This document shows, one piece after another, positions 1-47,888 of a stretch of 47,888 nt of DNA. Below the pieces are notes generated by a model. The model was given only the letters and a program-made list of their open reading frames with translations. It was not told the DNA's origin and made no database searches. Every line of letters begins with the position of its first letter. The stretch's first letter is position 1. The translations under genes and the position numbers were made by a program. This stretch comes from a virus (Duplodnaviria; Heunggongvirae; Uroviricota; Caudoviricetes), in the IMG/VR virus record IMGVR_UViG_2718218397_000005; one strand, given 5' to 3'.

Positions 1-316
1 TATAATAAACTTACTTTTTTATCATTTTTCCACTTTAACAACATTTTGCTCCACTTTTCCACGATCAAACAACTTGAAATCTGGTTAAAATAACACGCAA
101 CACTATTCTTCTTCCTTGAGTCCGCCCGGAACTCGAAAAACAAACCGAGTTAAAGCCATTTTTCACAAAATCGATTTTGGGTCTCACCAAAATTACGGGG
201 TTGCATACGCATTCGTTTATTTTCGAACGTGTACATACAAATATGCACAAAAATAATCAAAATTATTTTCTGAGATGCATTATGATATGAACACCAATTT
301 CGTATAGAGTCTCACT

Positions 317-907: not shown

Positions 908-1004
908 AAAATAATCTCGGTGTGAGATGCTTTACGTCTTCCAAGCCCCCTTCCTTGCCGTAAATGGAAAGATACATCTAATTATAGAATTTATATGTTT
1001 TACC

Positions 1005-4546: not shown

Positions 4547-4551
4547 CCCAC

Positions 4552-4577
4552 AAAAAAGCCCGCCTGAACCGGCGGGC
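4552..4577 (-). terminator. Rho-independent terminator downstream of lom
   Basis: Stem GCCCGCC (4558-4564) / GGCGGGC (4571-4577), 6-nt loop, followed on the minus strand by a T6 tract (A6 at 4552-4557 on plus strand). Confidence 0.6.
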
Positions 4578-4604
4578 TGTCATAACACTGTGTTACCTGG
4601 CTAA

Positions 4605-5204: not shown

Positions 5205-5226
5205 AATTACCTCTCGCTTTTCTGCA

Positions 5227-5252
5227 ATAAAAAAGGCGTCATTCCTGACGCC
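5227..5252 (-). terminator. Rho-independent terminator downstream of J
   Basis: Stem GGCGTCA (5235-5241) / TGACGCC (5246-5252), loop TTCC, T-tract on the minus strand (plus-strand TAAAAAAG at 5227-5234). Confidence 0.55.
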
Positions 5253-5274
5253 ATTTATTGGGGTTATAAATATT

Positions 5275-9504: not shown

Positions 9505-10145
9505 TTGTCGGTGTACCTCTCTCGTTTGCTCAGTTGTTCAGGAATATGGTGCAGCAGCTCGCCGTCGCCGCAGTAAATTGCGGCGTGATTCGGCACCGAT
9601 GAACCAAAACAGCACAGCAGCACATCGCCCGGCTGTGCCGCTGACAACGGCACCTGATACAGCCCCGTCGCCTCCAGATTATCCAGATAGAGATTCTGGC
9701 CGTTACGCCACCAGTCATCCTCACGATGAAAGTCCGGCATCTCAATCCCCGCCAGATGATAAGCATCCCGGAACAGTGTGTAACAGTCCGTCACACCGTG
9801 CTCAAAGCGCCGCCCGGTGAGATGCGGCACACAGCGGAACTTATGAATCGTCCCCCGGCAGACCAGCCACCACGGCAAATCACTCTGCACCTGCAGCCGC
9901 CGGTCGGCCTCACTCAGCCAGGGTAGACCACCGGGGTGGCTGTGGACCAGCGCCACAATCTCACCCTGCATTTCTGCCTGCAGCCAGTCTTCCGGCGACA
10001 TACGGAAATACGCCTCCGGCTCACCGGAGATATTCACGCAGGGGAAATATCTTTCCCCCTCCGGCGTGCTTACCACGAAGCCGCACGACTCCGCTGGCGC
10101 ACATCGCCGGGCGTGCGCCAGAATCGCTGATTCTGTCTGTGTCAT
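9402..10145 (-). CDS. K: Tail assembly protein K (JAB/MPN plus NlpC/P60 domains)
   Basis: 247-aa ORF starting 5 nt after L stop; JAMM-like E..HSHP..SEAD motif and later Cys/His of NlpC/P60; lambda-annotated K start corresponds to internal Met49 at 10001. Confidence 0.8.
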   Translation of the reverse strand: MTQTESAILAHARRCAPAESCGFVVSTPEGERYFPCVNISGEPEAYFRMSPEDWLQAEMQGEIVALVHSHPGGLPWLSEADRRLQVQSDLPWWLVCRGTIHKFRCVPHLTGRRFEHGVTDCYTLFRDAYHLAGIEMPDFHREDDWWRNGQNLYLDNLEATGLYQVPLSAAQPGDVLLCCFGSSVPNHAAIYCGDGELLHHIPEQLSKRERYTDKWQRRTHSLWRHRAWRASAFTGIYNDLVAASTFV

Positions 10146-25028: not shown

Positions 25029-25322
25029 ATGAAAAAAATGTTGTTTTCTGCCGCTCTGGCAATGCTTATTACAGGATGTGCTCAACAGACGTTTACTGTT
25101 GGAAACAAACCGACAGCAGTAACACCAAAGGAAACCATCACCCATCACTTCTTCGTTTCGGGAATTGGACAGGAGAAAACTGTTGATGCAGCCAAAATTT
25201 GTGGCGGCGCAGAAAATGTTGTTAAAACAGAAACCCAGCAAACATTCGTAAATGGATTGCTCGGTTTTATTACTTTAGGCATTTATACTCCGCTGGAAGC
25301 GCGTGTGTATTGCTCACAATAA
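25029..25322 (+). CDS. bor: Bor lipoprotein (serum-resistance-associated)
   Basis: ORF 24981-25322; probable start MKKMLFSAALAMLITGCAQQTFTV... (lipobox LITGC), 97 aa, lambda Bor-like; opposite strand to lysis genes. Confidence 0.85.
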   Translation: MKKMLFSAALAMLITGCAQQTFTVGNKPTAVTPKETITHHFFVSGIGQEKTVDAAKICGGAENVVKTETQQTFVNGLLGFITLGIYTPLEARVYCSQ

Positions 25323-27112: not shown

Positions 27113-28195
27113 ATGAAAAAATTAACAGTGGCAATTTCTGCTGTAGCTGCATCAGTACTGATGGCGATGTCTGCTCAGGCAGCTGAAATTTATAATAAAG
27201 ACAGTAACAAGCTGGATCTGTACGGGAAAGTTAATGCTAAGCACTACTTCTCCTCTAATGATGCAGATGATGGTGATACTACTTATGCCCGTCTTGGCTT
27301 CAAAGGTGAAACCCAAATCAACGATCAACTGACTGGTTTCGGTCAGTGGGAATATGAATTCAAAGGCAACCGCGCTGAATCTCAAGGTTCCTCCAAAGAT
27401 AAAACCCGTCTTGCCTTCGCTGGCCTGAAATTCGGTGACTACGGCTCCATCGATTATGGCCGTAACTACGGTGTAGCATACGATATTGGTGCATGGACCG
27501 ACGTTCTGCCAGAATTCGGTGGCGATACCTGGACCCAAACAGATGTATTCATGACTGGTCGCACCACAGGTGTTGCAACTTATCGTAACAATGACTTCTT
27601 TGGTCTGGTTGATGGTCTGAACTTTGCTGCTCAGTATCAGGGTAAAAATGACCGTACTGACGTAACTCAAGCTAATGGTGATGGTTTCGGTTTCTCCACT
27701 ACTTATGAGTATGAAGGTTTCGGCGTAGGTGCAACCTATGCTAAATCTGACCGCACTAATAATCAGGTTATCTACGGTAACAACGGTCTGAATGCTTCTG
27801 GTCAAAATGCTGAAGTATGGGCAGCTGGTCTGAAATATGATGCGAACAACATCTATCTGGCCACCACCTATTCTGAAACCCAGAACATGACTGTTTTTGG
27901 TAATAACCATATTGCCAACAAAGCACAAAACTTCGAAGCTGTTGCACAATATCAGTTCGACTTCGGCCTGCGTCCATCCGTTGCTTACCTGCATTCTAAA
28001 GGAAAAGACTTGGGTGTTTGGGGTGATCAGGACCTGGTTGAATATGTTGATGTAGGTGCAACCTATTACTTCAACAAAAATATGTCCACTTTTGTTGACT
28101 ACAAAATCAACCTGATTGATAAGAGCGATTTCACGAAAGCATCTGGCGTTGCTACCGATGATATCGTTGCTGTAGGTATGGTTTACCAGTTCTAA
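27113..28195 (+). CDS. nmpC: Outer membrane porin, OmpC/OmpF family (phage-borne Lc/NmpC type)
   Basis: 360-aa ORF with signal peptide ([23 protein letters not shown]), porin motifs, C-terminal ..VAVGMVYQF; sits between Q and S on the opposite strand as in DLP12/PA-2. Confidence 0.85.
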
Positions 28196-29743: not shown

Positions 29744-31048
<1,305 letters not shown>

Positions 31049-31063
31049 CCACTACAGTAGCCA

Positions 31064-31519
31064 TTACGCCTCCTGCTTGTCGCGGAGCAGCTGGAACTCG
31101 CAGCTCTGCGGAATAGTCAGGTGGCAGCCAATATTCACCGCCCAGGCTTCAACCTTACACAGGAAGACATACATCTCTCCGGTATCAAGATCGGAGGTAT
31201 GGCGTAACGACTGGATAGTGGTGATATCACCGGTTACGACATCAACCAGGTCTTTGGTTTCATAACCGAGATATGTGTGTTTGAGAGCATCTTTTACCCA
31301 AGCTGGAGTAGCGAACGTTTTACCCCTGCTGATGAGGTATTCACTGATTTCGCTGTACCACATGTGGCTGAGTGCATTCTGGGAAAGACTGCGTTTCTCA
31401 CGCCACGGTTTAAGCACCATGCGAAAGCATTTGCCCTCCTCCAGATAAGGCTGGATCTGCCGACCGATAGCGGTGAAGTTACCGCGATGTAATTTGATGC
31501 CATCTTGTGGGAGATTCAC
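31064..31519 (-). CDS. ybcN: Nin-region protein YbcN-like
   Basis: 151-aa ORF (GTG start) [55 protein letters not shown]... Confidence 0.75.
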
Positions 31520-31706
31520 GCTTCACCTCCGCAGAGGTCAAACGCTGGATACAATATATCGCAGGTGCATTTCTGCATCTGTGGAGGGAGAAGAGAGTTT
31601 GGATTGTGTGTGCGCATAAACGTCCCCGTTTAGCGCAGAAGTCACCGGAGTTGTTCAGGCTCCGATGACATGATTATGGCGAGTTGATTATCGCAAATCA
31701 AAGGTT

Positions 31707-32063
31707 TTAATTGTGCTTTATTCCTTCAAGCGTTGCCTTCATACCAACCAAAGAAATGTTTAGCTCTCCAACTTTCTCAGGGCTATATAATTCAGAATGA
31801 AGCCAATATTCTGATTTATCTAAACATCTTTTAGCCAGCTCTCGATCAAAGTCTACGACTTGGGAAGACGCTTCATACCAAAGCCTATAAAGTTTTTCTT
31901 CTTCGTTTGGGTTATTAGGCTCACCACGTTTTAATTTTTCAGTATATAAAATTGTTGAATAAATCGCAGGAGTTAATCCAGTGATTGCCCTCTGCCGCAG
32001 ATCGGATTTGTTTGTTATCCACCCCAACAGACGATCTCCCATCCATGTGATAATTGTATCCAT
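31707..32063 (-). CDS. Hypothetical protein, no recognisable family (accessory)
   Basis: 118-aa ORF MDTIITWMGDRLLGWITNKSDLRQRAITGLTPAIYSTILYTEK...; AT-rich codon usage unlike neighbouring phage core genes. Confidence 0.5.
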   Translation of the reverse strand: MDTIITWMGDRLLGWITNKSDLRQRAITGLTPAIYSTILYTEKLKRGEPNNPNEEEKLYRLWYEASSQVVDFDRELAKRCLDKSEYWLHSELYSPEKVGELNISLVGMKATLEGIKHN

Positions 32064-32524
32064 GCTTTAGCCCTTCTTAGTAAATAGTGTGTAGGGCGAC
32101 TGAAGGACCGAGTTTATGCTTTTTCGCATTGCTTTCAGTTAGTACACCGGTATCGCACCGGAAACAATCCTACGGCAAATTGGTTGTCTGACCTCTCGGT
32201 TTTTCGTGCATTAACCGATACCCACTACAGTCTCGGCGAAAGCTGCACACCCCCAGGGTGTACTGGTAGCACTCGGCACAGCCTAGCACGCCACTTTCTT
32301 CTCACTATCCAGTCTAATTTTATCCCCTAGTCAGACACTCAGATGTAGTGCTCCGCAGCGGCATGCGGGGGAATACAAAAACTCGGACAAAATTGGGCCC
32401 TCCTTTTTGAATCACTCGCGGGGATGTAGTTATTAATACATGGAAAAAGATCTGTTTTCAAATCCAACATTATATGGTTTCAATACCACGGGGTGGCTAT
32501 GTGTTTCTCATTGTTAATTGGAAT

Positions 32525-32848
32525 CTACTGTAATCGATCCGAACGTAAATGCGGCAAAACTCGACTCCACTTATCATCCTGCCACGGCCGGAATTTTACA
32601 TGTGCCGTTTCTCTGGCAAGGATTGCCTGTGCCTTATTGAGTATCTGGGGATATTCTTGCTCGATAGAAGTGAAGCGACCAGCTTCACGATGCTCCGCAA
32701 CCTGAAGAAGAGGAGTAACGTTCTGGTAGGTAATTAACATCACATTCCCTGCTCGCCATAACCAGGCGAGTGTGCAAAGTTCGTTATCAGTGAATTGTTT
32801 TGTGATTGGGTATTGTTGAACTGCTAGAACGAGAACGCCAGCATCCAT
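32525..32848 (-). CDS. Hypothetical protein, no recognisable family (accessory)
   Basis: 107-aa ORF MDAGVLVLAVQQYPITKQFTDNELCTLAWLWRAGNVMLITYQNV...; possible -10 TATAAT upstream on the minus strand. Confidence 0.5.
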   Translation of the reverse strand: MDAGVLVLAVQQYPITKQFTDNELCTLAWLWRAGNVMLITYQNVTPLLQVAEHREAGRFTSIEQEYPQILNKAQAILARETAHVKFRPWQDDKWSRVLPHLRSDRLQ

Positions 32849-32959
32849 TGGCAGTCTCTATAGTAAAACCATAGCTCAGGACGCTTCGTTCAGGATAGAT
32901 AATTTTATTGTACTTACCTAACTTTCTTATTATAGCACGGTTGAAAAAGTGATTATTAC

Positions 32960-34486
32960 TCAAAAATAAACCTCACCATCAACCATATATTTGAGAGTAC
33001 TTATCGCCTGCTGGGCGGATATTGTTTTCATTAAAGGATAGTGTTTAAAAACAATGCCATTCATAAAATAGATATCACAGGTTTTATTATCTGTATTGAT
33101 TATGATTTTTTCGAATGTTTTATAGGCAAGTGTACGACATAGCTCTCGCCCATTTTTACTGGTTAAGTCAATAGCATGAAAATCACCAAGTGAACTCACC
33201 GCTTTACTCTTCAAAGTTTTTAATGATACAGAAGCCCTTCGTAATTCCTTATCTAATACTCTGATTTTTTCTGCTATAGCGGTAACTTCAGGCGCAACAG
33301 ATAATGCAGCAATTAAATTATTAATTTTCATCTGGAGCTCAATAATTTTCAACTCTAAAGTTTCATTAGCATCTTTCTTGTTTTCAACTGGTTGGATTTT
33401 ACTACAATTAAAAAGCAACTCATTAATGATATTATAATCAACCAAATCTCTCTTTATTGATGGCCTGTCACATCGATGCAGTCTTCTCATCGGACAAACA
33501 TAATAGCCATGCAAACTTCCAGATACCGCATGAACAATCATGGTATTACCACAAGCCTCGCACTTCATAACTGTTCGAAGTAGATTTATCAACATAGGAT
33601 TTTTGCTACTATTGCTAATACCAAAAGGTGCCAACCGAATTTCCTGTACAGCGTAAAACAAATCATCTGATATGACTCTGGGATAATAGCCAGCGATTTC
33701 ACTTATTCCTTTACCTCTTGCACGATATGAAGGTACGCATATACCTATCAGAGCTTTATTCGCTAATAATTTTTCAATTACAGAAGGTCCCCATGCACTT
33801 TCTTTTCCTGAGAAATTCTTTACAGCATGATCATTTAAATACTTGGCTATTGCATTCAATGAGCGCCTTTCCATCCTGAGTTTAAAAATTAGCTCAATAG
33901 TTTTCACCCTGTCGGGGTCTGGAACAAAAGCCGTTCTTTTGTCATCTAAGGAGAGCCATCTCGGACAAGACGCCGTCATAATCGTACCTGATTCCAGTGC
34001 ATCCTGCCGTTTTTTCTTCCATGATAATTTAACCCGACTTGACTTTATCTCGCTTTCTTCATTTGCCCTTTGTGCTATAAGTATGGCTTTTATTAATGAA
34101 TATGGCTCATTCAAAGAGTCAATATTATAGACTGTATTGTCGCAAAGAGTTATAACATCAATACCGTGATTCAAAATCAATTTCAGACGTTCAATCGCTT
34201 CACCGACTTTTTCTCTTGAAAGTCTGTCCAGACTTTCAACTAACAATGTAGTTCCTGGCAATATATAACCATGCTCTATAGCATCTAAAAATTCCGAAAA
34301 AGCTCCTGATTGTGCATGCTTTCCTTTGAATGCACTTAATCCTAAATCTTCATATGTTATGGTATCAAGATAATAATCACTATTTACCTTTAACCATTCA
34401 GCAATAAGTCTTCTCTGTCGGTTTAATGAGTCGCCAGACATCTGACCTGGTGATGAAAATCGCATATATGCTATGGCTTTTTTCAT
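32960..34486 (-). CDS. ybcK: Large serine recombinase (YbcK-like)
   Basis: 508-aa ORF; N-terminal resolvase catalytic domain (AIAYMRFSSPGQ..), recombinase domain, zinc-ribbon (CEACGNTMIVH...YYVCPMRRLHRCDRP), C-terminal coiled coil; AT-rich. Confidence 0.8.
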   Translation of the reverse strand: MKKAIAYMRFSSPGQMSGDSLNRQRRLIAEWLKVNSDYYLDTITYEDLGLSAFKGKHAQSGAFSEFLDAIEHGYILPGTTLLVESLDRLSREKVGEAIERLKLILNHGIDVITLCDNTVYNIDSLNEPYSLIKAILIAQRANEESEIKSSRVKLSWKKKRQDALESGTIMTASCPRWLSLDDKRTAFVPDPDRVKTIELIFKLRMERRSLNAIAKYLNDHAVKNFSGKESAWGPSVIEKLLANKALIGICVPSYRARGKGISEIAGYYPRVISDDLFYAVQEIRLAPFGISNSSKNPMLINLLRTVMKCEACGNTMIVHAVSGSLHGYYVCPMRRLHRCDRPSIKRDLVDYNIINELLFNCSKIQPVENKKDANETLELKIIELQMKINNLIAALSVAPEVTAIAEKIRVLDKELRRASVSLKTLKSKAVSSLGDFHAIDLTSKNGRELCRTLAYKTFEKIIINTDNKTCDIYFMNGIVFKHYPLMKTISAQQAISTLKYMVDGEVYF

Positions 34487-34680
34487 GGTGACACCTGCTA
34501 ACGTATGCTTTTATAAACCTTAGTGGTGGGATATAATTTTTGTTTAATTTTTATTTAAAAAGACAATTAAGGTCACATTATCTTGAATATACAACAATAA
34601 TCGTATTGCAATTTTCTTACGCCATAATCTTGAAAGCACAAAAGAATACATAAAAAAATAAAGACATTAACAAAAAGCAT

Positions 34681-34711
34681 AAAACGAGGCTCATATAAAT
34701 ATAAGAGCCTC
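34681..34711 (-). terminator. Rho-independent terminator downstream of emrE
   Basis: Stem GAGGCTC (34686-34692) / GAGCCTC (34705-34711), AT-rich loop, followed on the minus strand by GTTTT. Confidence 0.55.
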
Positions 34712-34742
34712 CATATTTTAGTCGTTTAGAAACAAATTATTT

Positions 34743-35075
34743 TTAATGTGGTGTGCTTCGTGACAATAAATTAATAACCAACACACCGGCACAAATCAAC
34801 ATCATGCCTATAATGGCTGGCAGGTCCAGCCGTTGGCCGAAAAGTCCCCATGACAGTAAGCTAATCAGGACAATACCGACTCCTGACCAGATAGCATAAG
34901 CAATCCCTGTAGGAATATAAGCCAGCGTCTGAGCTAATAACCAGAATGATGCACAATAACAAATAATTGTACCAACAGATGGCCATAACCGTGTAAAACC
35001 TTCTGAAAACTTCATTAAGGTTGTACCAATGACCTCTGCAAGTATTGCACCACCAAGATAAATATAAGGGTTCAT
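34743..35075 (-). CDS. emrE: Small multidrug resistance (SMR) efflux transporter EmrE
   Basis: ORF 34743-35129; probable start MNPYIYLGGAILAEVIGTTLMKFSEGFTRLWPS... (110 aa), four TM helices, conserved Glu14. Confidence 0.9.
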   Translation of the reverse strand: MNPYIYLGGAILAEVIGTTLMKFSEGFTRLWPSVGTIICYCASFWLLAQTLAYIPTGIAYAIWSGVGIVLISLLSWGLFGQRLDLPAIIGMMLICAGVLVINLLSRSTPH

Positions 35076-35142
35076 AGAATATTCTTTCCTGTTCAAACTG
35101 GAGAGAATTGTACTACAGTTTGAACTCAACTCACCTGTTTCA

Positions 35143-35445
35143 TCATTGTGTACCCATTGATGTTCTTTTATATACCCTCAATACCCGTTTCATCGCGGCA
35201 CTCTGGCGACACTCCTTAAAAATCAGATTCGTGCTCACCTTTCCTTCCCGTTCTTCTCTGGTAGCAAACCGGTAATACACCGTTCGCCAGACCTTACCTT
35301 CGATAACCAGAAGACCTGCCCGTGCCATTTTAGCCGCAGCCTGATTTATGCTGGTTACCGTTGCGCCTGTTACCGCGGCAACGTCCTGCGCACAGAATTT
35401 CTTATGAGTCCCCAGGTAATGAATAATTGCCTCTTTGCCCGTCAT
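35143..35445 (-). CDS. ren: Ren protein (Rex exclusion-related)
   Basis: 100-aa ORF MTGKEAIIHYLGTHKKFCAQDVAAVTGATVTSINQAAAKMARAGLLVIEGKVWRT..., lambda Ren-like. Confidence 0.85.
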   Translation of the reverse strand: MTGKEAIIHYLGTHKKFCAQDVAAVTGATVTSINQAAAKMARAGLLVIEGKVWRTVYYRFATREEREGKVSTNLIFKECRQSAAMKRVLRVYKRTSMGTQ

Positions 35446-36143
35446 ACCCTTGCTCCTTTCAGCCCAAACTTAGCTTTGATTTCTGCGATCTTCGCCAGAG
35501 CCTGTGCACGATTTAGAGGTCTACCGCCCATGACAGGAAGTTGTTTTACTGGTTCAGGTATAGCCTCACCACGGTTAATTCGTGCGGTCATACAGGACAG
35601 TTCATCGGCAGCCTTGCGCCGTAATTCCGCGTCAGTCAACGCATTGGCCCGCATGTTCTGATACAGGTTGGTAACCAGCCAGTAGTGCGCGTTTGATTTC
35701 CACGGATAAGACTCTGCATCCGGATACAGCCCGCGCTTCCGGCAATACTCGTAAACCATATCAACCAGCTCGCTGGCGTTTGGCAGCCCGGCGGTAACGG
35801 ATGCTTCTTCCCGGCACCAGGCGACAAACTGCCCGGGTGATGGCAGGAATGGTCGATTCTGCCGACGGGCTACGCGCATTCCAGCGTTAACCTGTTCCAT
35901 TGTGGTGATCCCGTTTTCCCGGAAAGCCAGCACCCACTGGCGGCGGATTTCGTTCAGTTCATTCTGGTCACGGTTAGCCAGGCTCGCCGGGAAAGTTGCC
36001 AGTAACTGGCTGAACACACCATTGATGATCTGCGCTACCTGTTGTACCTGCGGCTTTTCGTCGTACTGTTCCGGCATGTTGTTGGCGATCCGGCGCATCT
36101 GCTCACGGTCAAAGTTAACCATCTGTGCGGCGATGTTTTTCAT
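35442..36143 (-). CDS. P: Replication protein P (DnaB helicase loader)
   Basis: 233-aa ORF MKNIAAQMVNFDREQMRRIANNMPEQYDEKPQVQQVAQIING..., lambda gpP-like. Confidence 0.9.
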   Translation of the reverse strand: MKNIAAQMVNFDREQMRRIANNMPEQYDEKPQVQQVAQIINGVFSQLLATFPASLANRDQNELNEIRRQWVLAFRENGITTMEQVNAGMRVARRQNRPFLPSPGQFVAWCREEASVTAGLPNASELVDMVYEYCRKRGLYPDAESYPWKSNAHYWLVTNLYQNMRANALTDAELRRKAADELSCMTARINRGEAIPEPVKQLPVMGGRPLNRAQALAKIAEIKAKFGLKGARV

Positions 36144-37069
36144 AAATCCACCCCGTAAATCCAGTCAGTGTTTGTCAGGTCGAGTTTTGGTTTGCTGGCT
36201 ATCATGCCTGCCTGTTGCTTGTTACGGTTGATTTCGAGTTGGGTCCACTTGTCGCGGAGTTTGGCCGGACTTAGCACGTTACCGGACCAGAAGTTGTCCT
36301 GGCATGCCCAGCGGAAAAGCACGCACATGTCGCGGTGGTTACGTCCGTCACGTTCACGCATCAGGCGGATATCGTTAGCCCACCCTGCAAAATTCGGTTT
36401 TCTGGCTGATGGTGCGATGGTCTTCACCATGTCAAACATCCACTCTGCGGCGGTCAGGTCTTCTGCTGTCCCCCACTTGCTGCCGCTCTGAATTGCAGCA
36501 TCTGGTTTCACCACAGGAAGATCGTTTTCTGGTTGGTCAGAGGATTCGCCAGAATTCTCGGACGAAAAAGGTTTTATATTGTCTTTTGTTAGTTTGTCTT
36601 TTGTGTTTACCTGATTCGGGTAAACGCCTTTACCTGATTTGGGTAAACTTTTCTTACCTGATTCAGGTAAATTTACCTCTTTCAGGTAAACTTTATTTTT
36701 CTTACCTGATTCGGGTAATGTTGACCATTCACTGACCACATTATTAATACCGATATTCCGCCCGCTCTGAATCAAAATCCCACGCTTTACCAGAACACTT
36801 TTTGCAGCAGAACATTTGTGCGGTAATATCCCGGTCAATCCGGACAGTTGCTCGTTGCTCACCCAATCCAGTTTTTTATTAAAGCCATATGTTTTGCGCA
36901 TGACAGCCAGGAAGACCAGAAGCTGGTGCTGTGTTAATCCGGCCAGCATCACAGCTTCCAGCAACTCATTTGCAATGCGCGTATAACCATCATCGAGATC
37001 TGCCACGCGCGGCTCCTTTTGTGCCGCATCCGGCACTGGAAAATTGAATATCTCAGCAGTGTTTGCCAT
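36140..37069 (-). CDS. O: Replication initiator O
   Basis: ORF 36140-37159; probable start MANTAEIFNFPVPDAAQKEP.. preceded by GGGAGG SD; central LPESGKK repeats encoded by ori iterons; C-terminal P-interaction region. Confidence 0.8.
   Translation of the reverse strand: MANTAEIFNFPVPDAAQKEPRVADLDDGYTRIANELLEAVMLAGLTQHQLLVFLAVMRKTYGFNKKLDWVSNEQLSGLTGILPHKCSAAKSVLVKRGILIQSGRNIGINNVVSEWSTLPESGKKNKVYLKEVNLPESGKKSLPKSGKGVYPNQVNTKDKLTKDNIKPFSSENSGESSDQPENDLPVVKPDAAIQSGSKWGTAEDLTAAEWMFDMVKTIAPSARKPNFAGWANDIRLMRERDGRNHRDMCVLFRWACQDNFWSGNVLSPAKLRDKWTQLEINRNKQQAGMIASKPKLDLTNTDWIYGVDL
36607..36720. other. Origin of replication iterons (ori-lambda type) within O
   Basis: Five ~18-bp iterons TACCTGATTCGGGTAAAC and variants at 36607, 36631, 36655, 36674 and 36703, each an internal inverted repeat; AT-rich stretch follows. 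Confidence 0.8.
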
Positions 37070-37725: not shown

Positions 37726-37959
37726 TTAGGCGGCAGAATTACTCGCGTTAAACAATGGTGCAAGGTCGGGACGAATATCTGCTGGTTTAATCTTTCCACC
37801 AGTGGCTGAGACAATTTTCATTACATAGCGGGCATCAATTCCGCCACCGTGTAGCCAACGCCAAACAGTGGGCTGGGCTACACCGCATAGATCTGCCAGT
37901 CGTTTTTGACTACCTGTAATACTGATTGCGAGTTGAATGGTTTGATTTGTCATTATCAA
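37726..37959 (-). CDS. Cro-like HTH regulator (YdaS/Cro family)
   Basis: 77-aa ORF with HTH (..KRLADLCGVAQPTVWRWLHGGG..); divergent from cI across an operator-rich intergenic region. Confidence 0.75.
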   Translation of the reverse strand: MIMTNQTIQLAISITGSQKRLADLCGVAQPTVWRWLHGGGIDARYVMKIVSATGGKIKPADIRPDLAPLFNASNSAA

Positions 37960-37984: not shown

Positions 37985-38063
37985 ATAATAGCAATGCGTA
38001 TTAACCCAATCAATAGCAAAACGTGTTTTGACCATCAATACGCAAGCGTATAAATTAAAACTT
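37985..38063. promoter_or_regulatory. OR operator region with divergent pR / pRM promoters
   Basis: Dyad elements TAATAgcaatgcgTATTA, ATCAATAgcaaaacg and TACGCAAGCGTA; pRM-like -35 TTGACC (38028-38033) and -10 TAAATT (38051-38056) placing the start at the cI ATG (leaderless). Confidence 0.55.
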
Positions 38064-38756
38064 ATGAAAAAAGAAACTCTTGCTGATCGCTTAAACCTAG
38101 CGATGGAACAATCTGGAATGTCTCAAGGCGCTCTTGCAAAGGCGTCTGGCGTAGCTCAACCCACAATCTGGAGACTGACAAGCGGCAACGCACGCGGCTC
38201 AACAAAAATTGTTGAAATAGCTAATGCATTGGGTGTTCGAACAGAGTGGCTCTCATCAGGCATAGGCCCGATGAGAAATGACGGTCAACAATCAGGGAAG
38301 CCTGCTGCCAACCATCCCAAATACTTCAAGATTGACGTTCTTGATATAGAAGTGAGTGCCGGGCCGGGAGTCATCAACCGTGAGTTTGTAGAAGTTCTAC
38401 GCTCGGTTGAGTACTCGTTTGACGATGCTCGTCACATGTTCGATGGCAGGAAGGCAGAAAATATCCGCATCATTAACGTACGCGGTGACAGCATGTCAGG
38501 AACGATCGAACCAGGTGATCTTCTGTTCGTTGATATCACTGTTAAATCTTTCGACGGTGATGGTATCTATGCGTTTCTGTATGACGACACAGCCCATGTT
38601 AAGCGCCTGCAAATGATGAAGGATAAACTGCTGGTTATCTCTGATAACAAGAGCTACTCACCGTGGGACCCAATCGAGAAAGACGAGATGAACCGGGTGT
38701 TTATCTTCGGGAAAGTTATTGGGAGCATGCCGCAAACATACAGGAAACATGGATAA
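38064..38756 (+). CDS. cI: CI-type repressor (HTH_XRE plus S24 LexA-like autoprotease domain)
   Basis: ORF 38028-38756 from TTG; probable start MKKETLADRLNLAMEQSGMSQGALAKASGVAQPTIWRL..; C-terminal peptidase S24 motifs (..RGDSMSGTIEPGDLLFVD.., ..HVKRLQ..). Confidence 0.85.
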   Translation: MKKETLADRLNLAMEQSGMSQGALAKASGVAQPTIWRLTSGNARGSTKIVEIANALGVRTEWLSSGIGPMRNDGQQSGKPAANHPKYFKIDVLDIEVSAGPGVINREFVEVLRSVEYSFDDARHMFDGRKAENIRIINVRGDSMSGTIEPGDLLFVDITVKSFDGDGIYAFLYDDTAHVKRLQMMKDKLLVISDNKSYSPWDPIEKDEMNRVFIFGKVIGSMPQTYRKHG

Positions 38757-38836: not shown

Positions 38837-39298
38837 ATGAGAATACTAGGTGTTAGGGCGGCGCCCAAAGTTACATCTTTTGTTGTATATTGCACTGATG
38901 AGTCTGCACTCAAATGTGTTGATGTTATTAAAATACCTTCGACCTTAGACACACCAGAAAAATTAAAGTATGTGCGAAATAACATCCTCGACATTCTTAA
39001 TTTATATAATGTTGAATTAGCTGCTATACGCGTTACTGAATCAAACTCTGATAATCTTAGCATTGACCGCCTTTATATAGAAGCTGTTATTCAAGAAGCA
39101 TTTTCAAGCAGTGATGTAAGAAGATATTACACCATTAGAAAATCTGGTATGAAGTCATCATTGAACCTAACAGAGATCGAGTATAAAGAAATATTGAAGT
39201 CACACCGTAATATAAATGGAATCGATAATTCTGGTTTTACAACTGAAACAAATGAAGCTGTTTTGGCTGCACTATCTGCGGAGGTAAGGGGATGCTGA
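38837..39298 (+). CDS. Hypothetical protein, first gene of a cI-linked cassette (rexA position)
   Basis: 153-aa ORF MRILGVRAAPKVTSFVVYCTDESALKCVDVIKIPSTLDT...; AT-rich; 7-nt overlap with the kinase gene. Confidence 0.55.
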   Translation: MRILGVRAAPKVTSFVVYCTDESALKCVDVIKIPSTLDTPEKLKYVRNNILDILNLYNVELAAIRVTESNSDNLSIDRLYIEAVIQEAFSSSDVRRYYTIRKSGMKSSLNLTEIEYKEILKSHRNINGIDNSGFTTETNEAVLAALSAEVRGC

Positions 39299-40338
39299 CT
39301 CCATACAAAAGAGCTGATGTAGCATTCGAATGGATTCGTGATCTAGAAGAACAGGGTTGTTTTTCAAAAGTATATCTGGCTCATGACAGACACCTAGCTC
39401 ATGACTTGGTGATTAAAGAAATAGAAAAAAAAGAAAACATTAACCACGACGACTACTTTAATGAAGCAAGGCTTCTCTATAAACATGCACATCCAAATAT
39501 TGTGCAAGTTCAGTATGCTGCTCAATGTGAGAGCAATATCTATATAGCCATGCCATTTTATCATAATGGTTCGCTAAACCAATTAATAAAAAAGATTAAT
39601 CTTACGAGCAGGGAGATAATACGGTATTCTATTCAATTTTTAAGTGGGCTTTATCATATACACTCAAAAGGTCTTATGCATTTTGATATAAAACCTAATA
39701 ACATCATGATATCAAACAGAAATGAGGCCATGCTATCTGACTTTGGATTGTCTCAGTTAGTCAATGAGGAATCGAGAGCTGCGCCTGAGTTTGGATATCA
39801 TTTTCATGTGCCACCGGAATATTTTTCTTTATCAACAAATGATTATAATTTCACATATGACATATATCAGGCAGGATTAACCATATATAGAATGTGTGTT
39901 GGATATGATAATTTTGAAAGAGAAAGATCTGCATTTAGAACGATTGAACAACTCAGAGAGTCGATAATTAATGGCTCCTATCCATTAAAAGAGTATCCTT
40001 CCCACATACATAAAAAATTGATAACAATAGTAAACAAATGCATTCATGTAGATCCAAATGAAAGATATCAATCCGTACTAGACGTACTAAACGATCTCTC
40101 AGCTATAAGTGATGGCGTTCTTGACTGGCGTCTACAGATGACAAAACCAACTAACGGCACATATGAATGGCAAAAAAAGTCTGGGGACGTTATACTGTCT
40201 ATAGTTTTTGACGCAGAAAATTCGTCTACTACTGGTTTTCGTTTATACGATGGTGGGCGGAAAAGGCGTGCTACGAACTTAACAATATCCTCAGGATGTA
40301 CCCCTACAAAACTGTATAGGTTATTAAAGGATAACTGA
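39292..40338 (+). CDS. stk: Eukaryotic-like (Hanks-type) protein kinase
   Basis: 348-aa ORF with beta3 Lys (LVIKEI), catalytic loop HFDIKPNN, DFG motif (LSDFGLS) and PPEYF activation-segment motif. Confidence 0.8.
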   Translation: MLTPYKRADVAFEWIRDLEEQGCFSKVYLAHDRHLAHDLVIKEIEKKENINHDDYFNEARLLYKHAHPNIVQVQYAAQCESNIYIAMPFYHNGSLNQLIKKINLTSREIIRYSIQFLSGLYHIHSKGLMHFDIKPNNIMISNRNEAMLSDFGLSQLVNEESRAAPEFGYHFHVPPEYFSLSTNDYNFTYDIYQAGLTIYRMCVGYDNFERERSAFRTIEQLRESIINGSYPLKEYPSHIHKKLITIVNKCIHVDPNERYQSVLDVLNDLSAISDGVLDWRLQMTKPTNGTYEWQKKSGDVILSIVFDAENSSTTGFRLYDGGRKRRATNLTISSGCTPTKLYRLLKDN

Positions 40339-43028: not shown

Positions 43029-43183
43029 CGCATCCTCACGATAATATCCGGGTAGGCGCGATCACTTTCGTCTACTCCGTTACAAAGCGAGGCTGGGTAT
43101 TTCCCGGGCTTTCTGTTATCCGAAATCCGCTGAAAGCCCAGCGGCTGGCTGAGGAGATAAATAATAAACGGGAGGCGGTATGA
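43025..43183 (+). CDS. Small hypothetical protein (lambda small-orf-like)
   Basis: Manually translated 52-aa [55 protein letters not shown]; ATG overlaps exo stop, stop overlaps next gene start. Confidence 0.4.
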
Positions 43184-44424
43184 ACGAGGCAGCAATAATT
43201 ATTGTCCCAACAGACATCAGCAAGAAAATTCGCGAAATAGAAGAGTCCTACAACAGATATATAAATGAATTTCGCATCCCTAATGATCATAAGATAATCG
43301 TGAATTATTCAGCAGGAAAAGACAGCACTGCCACACTCGCAGTGGCGCACACATTATTCGGCAAACAGGTACATGCTGTTATGGCAGACACGGATAATGA
43401 GCATAATCTAACTGTCGAATTCGCCAGGAGCATTCATGAGCAGATCGGTTGTAGCCCTGTGCAGGTTGTGAAGCGGATTTACACTGAAGAAGATTTTGCC
43501 AAACGACGAATTTATCTGCAAAAAAACTGGTCTAAACGACAGATGCTCCGCATGGGAGCATACCGTGGCATAGTCATGCCTTCCCTCGCACGTTCTGACA
43601 CCAAATTCGGGCAAGCCTGGAAGCGCACAGCAGAACGCTGGGGAATTGAGTTCGAAACTGCTCTTGATGCTGCGCTTTCCGTTATGCACCCATCCGGTAA
43701 TAGCTTTTTGGATTGCTCCCTTCTGCATGGCAAGTTCCCTATGCTGCGCGACCGATTCTGTACAGACGAACTGAAAATTCAGATAGCTTTCGACGCAGCC
43801 ATAAAGCCGCTCCTTGATGCTGGCGATGTTATCGTACAATGGTCTGGTGTTCGCGCGGATGAGTCCTCTAAGCACGCTGGATATGAGAGGTTTTCCCGCG
43901 ATATGCGCGACGCCGATTTTCTCTACAACTTCCTGCCGCTCCACAAATGGACGGCTGAGGACGTATTCGCAGTTCACAAATATTTCGGAATTAAGCCAAA
44001 TCCACTTTATATGCAAGGTGCGTCTCGTGTTGGCTGCATGAATTGCGTGCTATGCAACAAAGAGGAAATTGCAGAGACGGCTGCGCGCTGGCCAGAGCAC
44101 ATCAAAAAGCACAAACAATGGGAGTTGAAGGTACGCCTTGCTAGTAGATGGGTACACTGGATGAGCGTAGGAGAGATAAGCCAACGCTGGATGAAACAGT
44201 TCAATCTGCCACTTGGTCGAAATATTCAACTTTTTGGGCTAAAACCTGATGTGCAACACATCGACTGGTCAGGATTTTATGGTCCTCGTGGAGATCTTAA
44301 TTCTCCGGGTGTTTATGAAGTCGTAGAGTGGGCAAAAACAGGGCGCGGTGGCAAGGTCTACGATCTTGTAAAAGCAAGTCTCGATATAGAGGTTTGCTCT
44401 TCACGCTACGGTCTGTGCGAATAA
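43180..44424 (+). CDS. PAPS-reductase-like PP-loop ATP pyrophosphatase family protein
   Basis: 414-aa ORF with PP-loop motif (VNYSAGKDST) and later Cys residues (..RVGCMNCVLC..). Confidence 0.7.
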   Translation: MNEAAIIIVPTDISKKIREIEESYNRYINEFRIPNDHKIIVNYSAGKDSTATLAVAHTLFGKQVHAVMADTDNEHNLTVEFARSIHEQIGCSPVQVVKRIYTEEDFAKRRIYLQKNWSKRQMLRMGAYRGIVMPSLARSDTKFGQAWKRTAERWGIEFETALDAALSVMHPSGNSFLDCSLLHGKFPMLRDRFCTDELKIQIAFDAAIKPLLDAGDVIVQWSGVRADESSKHAGYERFSRDMRDADFLYNFLPLHKWTAEDVFAVHKYFGIKPNPLYMQGASRVGCMNCVLCNKEEIAETAARWPEHIKKHKQWELKVRLASRWVHWMSVGEISQRWMKQFNLPLGRNIQLFGLKPDVQHIDWSGFYGPRGDLNSPGVYEVVEWAKTGRGGKVYDLVKASLDIEVCSSRYGLCE

Positions 44425-44435
44425 TACTAAGTTAT

Positions 44436-45038
44436 TTACTCATTATTTTTTGATAATACAACTTTCTGCCAAGTTATCTGGTTACGTTGAAAACTATCTT
44501 TATTTATTGACGTAACTCGCAATGTTTTCAGACCTAACTGAGACGCTAACTCAAGAAGTTCCTCAGTATTAACAACGTTAATGTTTCTATCTGGTTCGGG
44601 AGGTCCTAAGCGCAATGTAATTATCATTCTCCCATTCAATGTTAAAAGATCAGTTAGCGTCTCTAGTGAGATTTTTTGCTCTTTTTTTGAAAGATGCATC
44701 CATACAGCACTGACTAAAATAAGGTCGAACTTTAGATTCATTGCTTTAACACTATGAAGAAAAGGCAATGAATCATCTAACCATATAATATGGTTAGATT
44801 TATAATATGAAGATGCCAAATTTCGCATCTTTTCACTTGGTTCAACAGCTATTACTTTATAACCTAATTCATCTAACGCAGCAGCATCACGGCCGGAACC
44901 TGAACCGACATCCAAAGAGACACCCTTAGATTGTAAAATAAACTCTTCAACATCCTGAAAGATAGAGTAAAAATCAAGTGATATATAATCGGCAAATAAG
45001 CGATCAGCATTATTGTCATAAAACTTCCACGAAGTCAC
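44436..45038 (-). CDS. Class I SAM-dependent methyltransferase (TehB-like architecture)
   Basis: 200-aa ORF with motif I (VSLDVGSGSGRDAAAL) and post-I acidic residue (VIAVEPS); no DPPY/NPPY motif, so probably not an N6/N4 DNA methyltransferase; AT-rich. Confidence 0.7.
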   Translation of the reverse strand: MTSWKFYDNNADRLFADYISLDFYSIFQDVEEFILQSKGVSLDVGSGSGRDAAALDELGYKVIAVEPSEKMRNLASSYYKSNHIIWLDDSLPFLHSVKAMNLKFDLILVSAVWMHLSKKEQKISLETLTDLLTLNGRMIITLRLGPPEPDRNINVVNTEELLELASQLGLKTLRVTSINKDSFQRNQITWQKVVLSKNNE

Positions 45039-45667
45039 TTTGATAATCCTGATTTTGCTTCGATAAATAATCCTGACTCAATATTTTTAATTGTTGCTTT
45101 GTATGTATTATGTGAAATGTCTTTTGAAAACAAGTTTGGATGATATACCCCAGCAATATTAACAAAGAAGCAAACAATAAGCATTACTGCCCAGCACGAC
45201 ACTACTATGTAACCAGTTTCCTTATTATCATAGCTAGAGGGCAATTTAAATCCAGCGTCTCTAGTAATTTCATTTAAAATATAGTTTTTTGAAGGATCTT
45301 CAATGTTTTTTTGTAGTGCTATTTTCGAACCAATTAAAGACCTTAAGCGATAAAGTGTAATCATTGTTGTGAAATCAAACAATGCTAACACTGCAAAGAT
45401 AATCCATAGGGAACTTTCATTTGCCAGTGTTGTTGCATACCACAACCCACCATTGACAGCAATTACGAAACTAGGGATTTGCCACATGAGCTGATTTAAA
45501 GCCCGCATGTGTTGTCCTGCTTCAAGATAAGTAATCTCCTGCAGCTTCTGATACCAACGGATTGCCTCAATTTTTAGATTTTCGTTAATCTGTTGCTGTT
45601 GCTGATTTACCATGTAATCCCTGCTCAACGAACTGAAACTTTTAATGATGCTATCACAACTTATCAA
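45035..45667 (-). CDS. Hypothetical membrane protein co-transcribed with the methyltransferase
   Basis: 210-aa ORF with poly-Gln N-terminus and about 3 hydrophobic segments (e.g. IPSFVIAVNGGLWYATTL, LWIIFAVLALFDFTTMITLY, YIVVSCWAVMLIVCFFVNIAGV); 4-nt overlap with methyltransferase. Confidence 0.55.
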   Translation of the reverse strand: MISCDSIIKSFSSLSRDYMVNQQQQQINENLKIEAIRWYQKLQEITYLEAGQHMRALNQLMWQIPSFVIAVNGGLWYATTLANESSLWIIFAVLALFDFTTMITLYRLRSLIGSKIALQKNIEDPSKNYILNEITRDAGFKLPSSYDNKETGYIVVSCWAVMLIVCFFVNIAGVYHPNLFSKDISHNTYKATIKNIESGLFIEAKSGLSK

Positions 45668-46526: not shown

Positions 46527-46869
46527 GGCCTGTCAGTTTCTCAAGATATCCAGACCTACCGCTACCAACTGGATACGAACAGGCCGCCTACAGGCAACAC
46601 GCAAAGACCCCACTAAACCAAAATCTCCTTACCTCACAACGCGACAAGCCTGCATTGCGGCGCTTCAGTCTCCGCTGCATACTGTCCAGGTGAGCGCGGG
46701 TGATGGCATAACAGAGGAAAGAAAATGTCACTCTTCCGCAGAAATGAAATATGGTATGCCTCGTATTCGCTCCCGGGCGGGAAACGAATTAAGGAATCTC
46801 TTGGCACAAAGGACAAGCGGCAAGCTCAGGAGTTGCACGACAAGCGAAAAGCAGAACTCTGGCGAGTAG
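46498..46869 (+). CDS. xis: Excisionase-like (AlpA/Xis-type HTH) protein
   Basis: ORF 46468-46869; probable start [31 protein letters not shown].. after GAGGT SD; reading frame runs 145 nt into int, so the C-terminal part may be non-native. Confidence 0.55.
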
Positions 46870-47888
46870 AAAAGCTAGGGGATTTACCTGATGTCACTTT
46901 TGAAGAGGCCTGCCTAAGATGGCTTGAGGAAAAAGCTGATAAAAAATCTCTCGATTCAGATAAAAGCCGGATTGAGTTCTGGCTTGAACATTTTGAGGGT
47001 ATAAGGCTTAAAGATATCTCGGAGGCAAAGATTTACTCTGCTGTAAGCAGAATGCATAACAGAAAGACGAAAGAAATATGGAAACAGAAAGTTCAGGCCG
47101 CCATCAGGAAAGGTAAAGAACTGCCTGTTTATGAACCAAAGCCAGTATCAACTCAGACAAAGGCAAAGCATCTTGCCATGATAAAGGCCATTCTCCGTGC
47201 TGCAGAACGCGACTGGAAGTGGCTGGAAAAAGCGCCTGTCATCAAGATACCAGCGGTCAGAAACAAGCGAGTCAGATGGCTGGAAAAGGAGGAAGCAAAA
47301 CGCCTTATTGATGAGTGCCCCGAACCACTGAAATCTGTCGTCAAGTTTGCGCTGGCAACTGGTCTGAGAAAGTCGAACATCATAAATCTGGAATGGCAAC
47401 AAATCGACATGCAGCGACGAGTTGCCTGGGTGAATCCAGAAGAGAGCAAATCAAACCGCGCCATTGGTGTGGCGCTGAACGATACCGCCTGTAAAGTGTT
47501 GCGTGATCAAATAGGCAAGCATCACAAATGGGTGTTTGTACATACCAAGGCGGCTAAGCGAGCAGATGGAACATCAACGCCTGCGGTCAGGAAGATGCGC
47601 ATCGACAGCAAGACATCATGGCTATCAGCTTGTCGTCGTGCAGGAATTGAAGATTTCCGTTTCCATGACCTCAGACATACCTGGGCAAGCTGGCTGATTC
47701 AGTCAGGCGTCCCATTATCAGTGCTTCAGGAAATGGGCGGATGGGAGTCCATAGAAATGGTTCGTAGGTATGCTCACCTTGCGCCTAATCATTTGACAGA
47801 GCATGCGAGGAAAATAGACGACATTTTTGGTGATAATGTCCCAAATATGTCCCACTCTGGAATTATGGAGGATATAAAGAAGGCGTAA
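46725..47888 (+). CDS. int: Tyrosine site-specific integrase (DLP12 IntD-like)
   Basis: 387-aa [38 protein letters not shown]...; C-terminal catalytic residues (..[11 protein letters not shown].., ..[15 protein letters not shown]); window ends at its stop codon. Confidence 0.9.

Follow-up and report, generated by a model that had tools for sequence, protein, structure and literature searches.

emrE and ybcK, two neighbouring genes of a DLP12-type lambdoid prophage, are on balance probably two separate single-gene passengers in a cargo hotspot between ren and ninB (here ybcN), with YbcK being a cargo recombinase that acts elsewhere. Both are already named genes of E. coli K-12, so that their finding as such is already known, and their position in DLP12-type phages, already annotated across thousands of genomes and several isolated phages, matters little. 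Of modest use are the distribution of emrE and the observation that YbcK is an intact, strongly conserved homologue of the serine integrases and is found in a quarter of E. coli genomes.

emrE and ybcK occupy a variable region between ren and ybcN

The window, that is, the whole stretch of 47,888 nucleotides analysed, corresponds to an intact lambdoid prophage of the DLP12 type, located at argU. The 5.2 kb compared (31000–36200) are 100% identical to E. coli JNE082640, whose annotation carries the names ybcK and emrE, and intD beside argU. On the minus strand, a cro-like gene, a YdaT/cII-like gene, O, P, ren, emrE and ybcK precede the downstream cargo, a 107-aa P22_AR_C fragment and a 118-aa hypothetical ORF, after which come ybcN (NinB-like), an IS3-family insertion sequence, ninE, ybcO, rusA and Q. 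In the ORF listing, ybcK spans 32960–34486 (minus strand, 508 aa) and emrE spans 34743–35075 (minus strand, 110 aa from ATG). They are flanked by a ren-like gene annotated Ren (35143–35445, minus strand) and by ybcN (NinB/Orf-like; 31064–31519, minus strand), the first conserved nin gene past the hotspot, which bears out the position between ren and the nin genes that had been read from the sequence alone. Likewise, both genes are indeed AT-rich relative to the flanking phage genes, with a GC content of 0.31–0.40 across 32800–35000 versus 0.50–0.58 in P and O. Rfam gives no match in the region.

Sister phages share with the window only 31057–31702 and the sequence from 35179 onward. The right boundary of the hotspot lies within the 3′ end of the ren-like gene, at ~35179, and homology with phages that carry neither emrE nor ybcK resumes at 35179–35200. 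The left boundary is an 18-bp palindrome (TTGATTAT-CG-CAAATCAA; 31684–31701), which sister phages preserve through compensatory changes in its arms, whether or not they carry ybcK. Between these boundaries, sister phages hold PD-lambda-1 with Rha, an acyltransferase with a lipoprotein, or emrE-ybcK with other cargo. emrE and ybcK thus show the replacement by unrelated genes in sister phages and the atypical base composition that characterize moron or cargo genes.

In the window, the variable cargo downstream of ybcK (31703–32950, minus strand) comprises the P22_AR_C antirepressor fragment (32525–32848) and the 118-aa hypothetical ORF (31707–32063), and the 80 viral contigs present at least six alternative layouts of this segment. 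We propose that these downstream genes arose by ordinary mosaic exchange in the hotspot. Similarity to the other layouts fades over ~45–75 nt past the ybcK stop codon, and the layout breakpoints all cluster ~10–75 bp from it. Such clustering is also expected if a recombination site lies at the 3′ end of the gene.

YbcK looks like a complete and functional large serine recombinase

YbcK matches the Pfam families Resolvase (PF00239, 7.7e-19), Recombinase (PF07508, 2.3e-14) and Zn_ribbon_recom (PF13408, 8.2e-08), in agreement with the large serine recombinase with catalytic, recombinase and zinc-ribbon domains that had been proposed for this ORF. Specifically, the catalytic domain extends over residues ~4–161, followed by the recombinase domain (191–284), the zinc ribbon (302–357), a coiled coil (~368–430), which appears as long helices at 368–430 in the AF2 model (mean pLDDT 79.9), and a conserved C-terminal beta/alpha domain (444–508). 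The residues R9, S11, D47, D87, R88, R91 and E144 are invariant in 22 relatives of 41–61% identity, as are the zinc cysteines C309, C312, C331 and C339. Ser11, at which the sequence-only reading had allowed for an inactivating substitution, is therefore intact and conserved along with the other catalytic residues.

In line with the domain layout, the best Foldseek matches to YbcK are SPbeta SprA (4.6e-19), PhiC31 (1.5e-15), Bxb1 (3.4e-14) and A118 (4.1e-11), all with near full-length alignments, and its PHROG match is phrog_95, 'integrase'. A PDB sequence profile search returns weak SprA matches only, so that placing the protein needed the fold search. YbcK thereby has everything that defines the large serine recombinase superfamily, namely the catalytic domain, the recombinase domain with zinc ribbon and coiled coil, and the fold. 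Judged by its residues and predicted structure, YbcK is a complete large serine recombinase of the integrase type and looks functional. Additionally, the dN/dS of ybcK is 0.05–0.11, and this strong purifying selection argues that the gene has a real function, which our best explanation leaves unnamed. The literature searched holds no study of recombination by YbcK; only Rho termination and a sabinene-tolerance phenotype turned up.

emrE, its hairpin and the ybcK leader

The emrE product matches Pfam Multi_Drug_Res (PF00893, 3e-35) and the NCBIfam EmrE model NF042984 (239.6 bits against a cut-off of 226), which confirms a complete 110-aa EmrE-type transporter. Its sequence, MNPYIYLGGAILAE, has a glutamate at position 14; the membrane-embedded Glu14 is essential to the way EmrE couples protons and drug. 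A single residue, L78F, separates the protein from the K-12-type allele, and dN/dS is 0.01–0.02 versus the 92% allele. By its sequence, then, emrE is the well-known EmrE efflux pump, an SMR transporter of multiple drugs and quaternary cations.

Just past the emrE stop codon, at 34671–34712 on the minus strand, lies a terminator-like hairpin with a U-rich tract. The hairpin has a 7-bp G+C stem and a 12-nt loop (GAGGCTC-N12-GAGCCTC, 34686–34711) and is followed by GTTTTATGCTTTTTG on the minus strand; a simple terminator scan missed it because of the 12-nt loop. As an att site it was rejected, being present in a single copy in the window with no partner. The sequence-only reading had assigned this terminator to emrE itself. 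The hairpin and U-tract do stand after emrE, but they sit at the 5′ edge of a 2083-bp indel that contains ybcK and are absent after emrE in the emrE-ybcL-ybcM locus without ybcK, so that the hairpin belongs with the ybcK segment. The spacer between the two genes is an AT-rich 256-nt leader of ybcK (34487–34742, minus strand; fold z = -2.0), within which RefSeq annotates a frameshifted small ORF, ylcJ, at ~34544–34694. On the other side of emrE, a perfect 10-bp inverted repeat (GTTCAAACTG-N15-CAGTTTGAAC; 35091–35125) in the ren-emrE spacer travels with emrE, lying inside the ~76 bp upstream of emrE that are common to the emrE-only allele, and it may be an operator or a 5′-UTR hairpin.

Published LF82 transcriptomes show that, in the lysogen, the sister phage Perceval transcribes its emrE (PMC9928086), and the Perceval ybcK homologue rises from log2 ~3.1 in LB to ~5.8 in macrophages (log2FC 3.65, q 5e-19; PMC9928086 S4 Table). 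In the same table, the ybcK homologue ranges over log2 2.9–5.8 and emrE over 4.4–7.4, with the adjacent P at 2.3–2.9 throughout, and macrophage induction is common to many AT-rich foreign genes. The published LF82 data thus place transcription of the emrE and ybcK homologues apart from the lytic operons, as is expected of morons. In K-12, ybcK is low in LB and limited by Rho, and its untranslated leader holds a Rho/NusG-dependent terminator (PMC4150792). We propose that the hairpin terminator and the Rho-dependent terminator in the leader keep ybcK low in LB and that, in some conditions, its transcription can be uncoupled from that of the phage replication genes. In lytic growth, N antitermination from pR would also read through ybcK.

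Gene order around ybcK is collinear in all phages compared

The sequence-only reading had proposed that YbcK inverts or excises itself together with the variable cargo (~31520–35130) through paired sites at the edges. The high variability of the cargo just downstream of ybcK, with its six or more layouts and its breakpoints near the stop codon, would suit this model, as would the apparently active enzyme, judging from its residues. However, the best direct or inverted flank repeat around 31520–35130 is at chance level, and so are all repeats across 31000–35600 and the matches between both flanks when scanned window by window against shuffled sequence, although such searches are low-powered for the att sites of large serine recombinases, which are short (40–50 bp) imperfect dyads with attL/attR pairs that share little sequence. 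An inverted match between the two hotspot edges (50 nt, 30/50; 7/60 shuffles) was discarded as absent from four sister phages. Additionally, all 80 viral contigs with ybcK and 12 isolated phages are collinear, with the single orientation P-ren-emrE-leader-ybcK-(variable cargo)-ybcN, and no inverted or excised isoform occurs among these or in 1398 E. coli genomes. The hotspot is equally variable in phages without ybcK, and ybcL-ybcM also stands beside emrE where ybcK is missing. We therefore consider rearrangement of the neighbouring cargo by YbcK highly improbable. Of the two findings that the sequence-only reading had named together as refuting it, the lack of sites or isoforms is observed, and an inactivated catalytic serine is not. 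With one orientation in every contig and phage and no inverted repeats above chance, the locus does not behave as a switch of the Gin/Hin/Pin type; the window's own Gin/Cin/Pin/Hin-type DNA invertase lies at 317–907.

emrE also occurs without ybcK, and ybcK relatives occur alone

emrE is present in 3692 and ybcK in 1429 of 5426 genomes, and ~2284 genomes have emrE-ybcL-ybcM without ybcK. Cargo regions of lambdoid prophages have thus brought emrE into about two thirds of the complete E. coli genomes, including a fossil emrE-ybcL-ybcM locus beside fliE. Relative to the K-12 layout, emrE-ybcL-ybcM differs by the single 2083-bp indel, which contains only ybcK and its flanks. Relatives of YbcK are found in nin regions, prophage tail ends, plasmids and an ICE-like element, and DNA homology between different ybcK contexts is limited in most pairs to the ORF with 8–223 bp upstream and 0–80 bp downstream. 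The tail-end relatives include those of Atlantibacter DHIB01000016, Erwinia JAGGMP010000001 and Ewingella JALCNN010000002.

These features raise the possibility that ybcK is a selfish element able to move itself, a minimal TnpX/TndX-like serine transposon that consists of the recombinase alone and enters the cargo regions of phages and plasmids. Its relatives stand by themselves in many unrelated contexts, between which homology does not extend beyond the gene, the presence/absence polymorphism in E. coli is clean and holds only ybcK, and in Atlantibacter the same lineage (78% DNA identity) is found at a tail end as well as in a nin region. Nevertheless, the indel, which provides a natural empty site, has no target duplication, terminal repeats, terminal inverted repeats or conserved end sequences, and the length of the shared flanks is inconsistent (-8 to -223 upstream, 0 to +400 downstream). 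All E. coli copies share one context, with ybcK adjoining the emrE end in 1398 of the 1429 genomes and the other 31 giving partial matches. The module of one relative, L102, is bounded by a 181-nt repeat that is only 86% identical, which argues for homologous exchange between phages. A transposon in the manner of Tn4451 or Tn5397 is thus poorly matched by the single E. coli context, the variable shared flanks and the lack of terminal repeats and target duplication at the indel, and we regard self-mobility as quite improbable. Two 94%-identical copies in two contexts (L025 and L035) have gradual boundaries and are uninformative. The word TTCACA is enriched upstream of ybcK relatives (7/21 versus ~2 expected); we rejected it as a binding site, as it looks like the -35 hexamer of a promoter belonging to the gene itself, for example TTCACA-N19-TATAAT in L101.

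YbcK as an integrase or a conflict factor

YbcK is distinct from the tyrosine integrase of the prophage, as had been stated earlier. The prophage's own integrase is of the IntD type (46725–47888, plus strand; PF00589, 5e-47) and lies at the prophage end, where it adjoins argU in the source genome. ybcK, by its position between ren and ybcN, is an internal gene, and a role for YbcK as the integrase of the prophage was rejected on these grounds. Alternatively, YbcK could be a second integrase, using an attP-like site in the conserved leader or just past the gene to enter an alternative chromosomal attB if argU is unavailable, and a plasmid carrying a relative could integrate likewise. The architecture and predicted fold are those of phage serine integrases, and the up to ~220 bp upstream and 80 bp downstream that travel with the gene in most pairs leave room for one attP. 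Additionally, several relatives are the last or near-last prophage gene close to host DNA, as in Atlantibacter, 540 bp from ssrA. On the other hand, no prophage permuted at ybcK is seen, since 1398 of 1429 genomes and 80 of 80 contigs keep the emrE junction. A tyrosine integrase is present in every case where the end of the element is visible, namely in the window, an O157 prophage at icd, a Pantoea locus (L012) and an Ewingella locus (L022). Three Ewingella relatives of 88% DNA identity have three unrelated downstream flanks; they have the gene and 400 bp in common, and their homology stops where a 67-aa gene ends, at its stop codon, not at an attB-like sequence shared by all three. One of these loci has a tyrosine integrase 1.7 kb away, and the tail-end relatives were likewise rejected as prophage integrases. 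Taken together, the alternative integration route, for phage and plasmid alike, appears unlikely.

YbcK might also be a lysogen-expressed conflict or host-modifying factor that recombines or cleaves the DNA of competing phages or plasmids, or flips a host locus, in trans. In a sister phage the hotspot carries PD-lambda-1, a named defence gene, L102 has a SIR2-domain gene in the same region, and ybcK is under purifying selection, with a transcription that is independent of O and P and rises in macrophages (PMC9928086). That induction, however, is shared with many AT-rich foreign genes in the same table (PMC9928086). YbcK has no conserved partner gene, and PADLOC matches none of YbcK, EmrE, ren or the two small cargo ORFs. 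We know of no serine recombinase that serves as a defence effector. A conflict role is accordingly improbable in our estimation.

Discussion

We propose that YbcK is a stand-alone, conditionally expressed cargo recombinase that would be neither the integrase of its prophage nor an enzyme acting on the DNA around it. It would perform conservative site-specific recombination at sites other than the local cargo flanks; candidates are a single site in its own ~250-bp leader, which would pair with a site on a second replicon, or sites that lie entirely elsewhere. That YbcK acts elsewhere is an argument from absence, because no substrate site was identified near ybcK.

In a wider and rather unlikely reading, YbcK-type enzymes would form an Enterobacterales-restricted clade of stand-alone cargo serine integrases that hop as single genes between large plasmids and two lambdoid hotspots, the nin region and the post-tail-fibre end, act in trans outside their own element, evolve under strong purifying selection and are turned on in stressed lysogens. 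If so, YbcK could rearrange the chromosome of its host or a rival mobile element, or give its carrier replicon a second integration route. Finding the target sites of YbcK could explain the selected function of a 'cryptic' prophage gene and could provide genome engineering with a further tool, a Gram-negative serine integrase.

Among known systems, the phage serine integrases (SPbeta SprA, PhiC31, Bxb1 and A118/LI) are the best structural matches to YbcK (Foldseek E 5e-19 to 4e-11) and share with it the three-domain architecture, the coiled coil and the catalytic Ser/Arg residues. Unlike these, with which its sequence identity is only 14–19%, YbcK has no known attP/attB and no identified directionality factor, its gene lies away from the prophage end, and its phage already has a tyrosine integrase. 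The Gin/Cin/Pin/Hin invertases use the same serine recombinase chemistry, and some YbcK relatives follow directly after tail-fibre and tail-fibre-assembly genes, the usual site of an invertase. Invertases, however, are ~190 aa with a C-terminal HTH, whereas YbcK has 508 aa and a zinc ribbon, and the searches at ybcK gave neither an invertible segment nor inverted repeats. At the general family level, YbcK can be likened to TnpX/TndX of Tn4451/Tn5397, large serine recombinases that also move with little DNA and occur in many contexts; unlike them, ybcK lacks defined element ends and does not occupy several insertion sites within one species.

The closest relative of the locus is DLP12 of E. coli K-12, which has the same order, ren-emrE-(ylcJ)-ybcK, and the same attachment site beside intD/argU, with a YbcK protein 98–99% identical (cluster P0001, 6144 members) and an MG1655 DNA match of 97.4%. 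In contrast to the defective K-12 DLP12, the prophage described here is full-length, with O, P, and head and tail genes; it carries the P22_AR_C fragment and the 118-aa ORF where K-12 has ybcL-ybcM, and an IS3-family insertion before ybcN. Coliphages Turner, Perceval (the LF82 prophage), 4A7, Lambda_4C10, 1W/3W/D2 and several PhiR phages likewise carry emrE-ybcK at 95–99% identity between ren and ybcN. These isolated lambda-like coliphages differ downstream of ybcK, where they have an alpha/beta hydrolase, ybcL-ybcM or none, and in Perceval the ybcK gene is annotated 'Large serine recombinase'.

Structure and integrity of ybcK and emrE

Between ren and the NinB-like gene ybcN, the minus strand of the window carries ybcK (32960-34486), a 508-aa ORF with Pfam Resolvase, Recombinase and Zn_ribbon_recom domains, and emrE (34743-35075), a Multi_Drug_Res gene of 110 aa counted from the ATG, whose product scores 239.6 bits with the NCBI curated EmrE model (cut-off 226) and so passes it. 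The GC content is 0.31-0.40 across the ybcK/emrE region, whereas P and O reach 0.50-0.58, and 3' of emrE lies a hairpin (34671-34712) with a 7-bp G+C stem and a 12-nt loop followed by a U-rich tail. Because ORF coordinates, domains, AT-richness and the terminator-like hairpin are all as described, the sequence-only observation of this gene pair is confirmed in full by the ORF list, Pfam, GC content and sequence. Additionally, a perfect 10-bp inverted repeat, GTTCAAACTG-N15-CAGTTTGAAC (35091-35125), sits within the 67-bp ren-emrE spacer, inside a stretch that also goes with the emrE-only allele, and could serve emrE as an operator or form a hairpin in its 5' UTR.

Across 22 relatives of YbcK, the most distant at 29% identity, residues R9, S11, D47, D87, R88, R91 and E144 and the four zinc-ribbon cysteines are invariant, and dN/dS is 0.05-0.11 among E. 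coli ybcK alleles with dS of 0.10-0.17. The closest structural matches to the AlphaFold model (mean pLDDT 79.9) are SprA, PhiC31, Bxb1 and A118, all full-length serine integrases, and PHROGs places YbcK in the class "integrase". Judged by invariant residues, dN/dS and predicted fold, YbcK looks functional.

A cargo hotspot without sign of local rearrangement

Sister phages lacking emrE and ybcK share homology with the window only at 31057-31702, a block comprising ybcN plus 180 bp that stops at a conserved 18-bp palindrome, and from 35179 onward, within the 3' end of ren. In between they hold PD-lambda-1 and Rha, or an acyltransferase and a lipoprotein, or many small ORFs. In ybcK carriers the DNA is constant from the emrE side to just beyond the ybcK stop and variable downstream, where at least six layouts were counted among 80 IMG/VR contigs: a P22_AR_C fragment alone, this fragment with a 118-aa ORF (the present window), ybcL-ybcM, an alpha/beta hydrolase, a P22_AR_C fragment with an alpha/beta hydrolase, or nothing. 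Similarity among the layouts fades over 45-75 nt past the stop codon, with no single sharp breakpoint.

The evidence does not support the earlier idea of inversion or excision of this neighbouring cargo by the recombinase. Searching for repeats, and scanning the two flanks in windows with shuffled sequence as control, gave chance-level matches; the best inverted match joined the two hotspot edges, but four sister phages do not show it. The emrE-side hairpin is single-copy in the window, gene order and orientation are identical in 80/80 contigs, and of the 1429 genomes with ybcK, 1398 have it next to the emrE end. Phages without ybcK are equally variable in this interval. Local rearrangement by YbcK is very improbable.

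The palindrome, TTGATTNT-N2-ANAATCAA (31684-31701), forms the ybcN-side edge in every sister phage, and its arms show compensatory changes (AT..AT versus TT..AA). A copy with one mismatch overlaps the start of a cro-like gene (37942-37959), giving two matches against 0.22 expected; the palindrome may be a protein-binding site. An IS3-family insertion sequence (~29871-31048, plus strand) with two ORFs and a programmed frameshift lies between ninE and ybcN, matches Rfam isrC at 29867-29989 and is missing from the sister phages.

ybcK and emrE travel independently

Among 5426 complete E. coli genomes, emrE occurs in 3692 and ybcK in 1429. About 2284 carry a fossil locus, fliE-emrE-ybcL-ybcM-porin-yedK, that lacks ybcK and has an emrE allele 92% identical; the fliE-yedK interval of E. 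coli UPEC_U013 exemplifies such a prophage fragment, and LF82 holds both emrE copies, one in the fossil locus and one in its prophage Perceval. A single 2083-bp indel, made up of ybcK, a 247-bp leader that includes the hairpin, and a 3' flank of 309 bp, sets the K-12-type layout apart from the fossil locus, and neither target duplication nor terminal repeats were found at its edges. The hairpin thus belongs to the ybcK unit rather than to emrE, and the two genes are independent passengers.

Full-length YbcK relatives (38-61% identity) are limited to Enterobacterales. They lie in nin regions of lambdoid prophages (Pantoea, Atlantibacter), as last genes past the tail fibre and tail-fibre assembly genes at prophage ends (Atlantibacter, Yersinia, Erwinia, Ewingella, Pantoea), on large plasmids and, once, in an ICE-like element. 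That YbcK offers a second integration route, as its integrase-like fold could imply, is unlikely; a tyrosine integrase is also present wherever an element end is visible. For most pairs, DNA homology across contexts extends beyond the gene by only 8-223 bp upstream and 0-80 bp downstream, the exception being an Ewingella trio with ~400 bp in common downstream. This confinement indicates that the ybcK-type gene moves as a single unit without constant ends. That it is a selfish recombinase-only element is improbable. The reading we favour, with moderate confidence, is that YbcK is a self-standing cargo recombinase of serine-integrase type, kept by selection, which would act on a substrate away from the local cargo.

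Prophage-end relatives often adjoin an 80-aa phrog_3893 gene and a UmuD'-like gene whose product begins (MGFPSPA...) where UmuD is cleaved, or a full umuDC pair (loci L004, 7092-7684; L008, 10207-10772; L013, 9212-9845; L098, 9325-9890; L022/L023, 8148-9865); in three loci the phrog_3893/UmuD'-like pair is found upstream of the recombinase gene, and in one it follows downstream. dinI is found near the relative in L099 and in L102, an Atlantibacter-like lambdoid contig with a 60% relative. In L102 a recombinase-KGG-dinI module lies between 181-nt direct repeats (9671-9851 and 12651-12831), each corresponding to a DUF1367 gene's 5' end; at only 86% identity they are a signature of homologous exchange among phages. 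The nin region of L102 also encodes a 646-aa SIR2_2 protein (5755-7695).

Expression

A Rho/NusG-dependent terminator lies in the ybcK leader of K-12, where mutation of Rho or NusG increases ybcK mRNA (PMC4150792). LF82 is a lysogen of Perceval; its ybcK homologue lies close to background in LB (log2 ~3.1) and reaches log2 ~5.8 in macrophages (log2FC 3.65, q 5e-19), with the neighbouring P gene at 2.3-2.9 throughout and emrE expressed at 4.4-7.4 (PMC9928086 S4 Table). Transcription of either gene can thus proceed without the lytic early operon; judging by gene order, N antitermination would also let transcripts from pR extend through them. Overexpression of ybcK in BL21(DE3) raised sabinene tolerance (PMC7181518), so ybcK is not toxic, though this does not inform its mechanism. 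YbcK matches none of the PADLOC defence models, and a role as a conflict or host-modifying factor appears quite unlikely.

Other genes of the prophage

A third site-specific recombinase, a 196-aa Pin/Gin-type small serine invertase (317-907, plus strand; Resolvase and HTH_7), lies just beyond the tail-fibre assembly (1005-1580) and tail-fibre (1580-4546) genes, both on the minus strand; no convincing inverted repeats bounding an invertible segment were found within 1-5300. Rfam IS009 matches inside the assembly gene (1039-1237, minus strand; 226.7 bits, gathering score 117). In a rexAB-like position beside the cI-like repressor (38028-38756), a 153-aa ORF without matches (38837-39298, plus strand) precedes a 348-aa Ser/Thr kinase (39292-40338, plus strand) with hits to two PADLOC models, PD-T4-6 and mad6 (E-values as low as 8e-49); the kinase is probably a prophage defence gene. 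In the early-left region, a PAPS-reductase-like protein with weak SspD/BrxP/DndC similarity (43180-44424, plus strand), a mad2-like SAM methyltransferase (44436-45038, minus strand; 7e-15) and a 210-aa ORF (45035-45667, minus strand) may form a DNA-modification module. Further lysogenic-conversion cargo lies between Q and the lysis genes: an iss/bor-type serum-survival lipoprotein (~25029-25322, plus strand; iss in the source annotation) and an NmpC/OmpC-type porin (27113-28195, plus strand).

Comparison with known prophages

The 5.2 kb at 31000-36200 are 100% identical to E. coli JNE082640, whose annotation places ybcK, a frameshifted ylcJ and emrE in a full-length lambdoid prophage with intD at its end, adjoining tRNA-Arg. 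This prophage type is the intact counterpart of the defective K-12 prophage DLP12. The K-12 copy matches at 97.4%, YbcK occurs at ≥98% protein identity in 12 isolated coliphage records, including Turner, Perceval, 4A7, Lambda_4C10, 1W/3W/D2 and several PhiR phages, and the Perceval copy is already annotated "Large serine recombinase"; the finding is thus already known. Taken together, it is real but ordinary: a pair of known cargo genes, in a part of a DLP12-type phage whose variability is also known.
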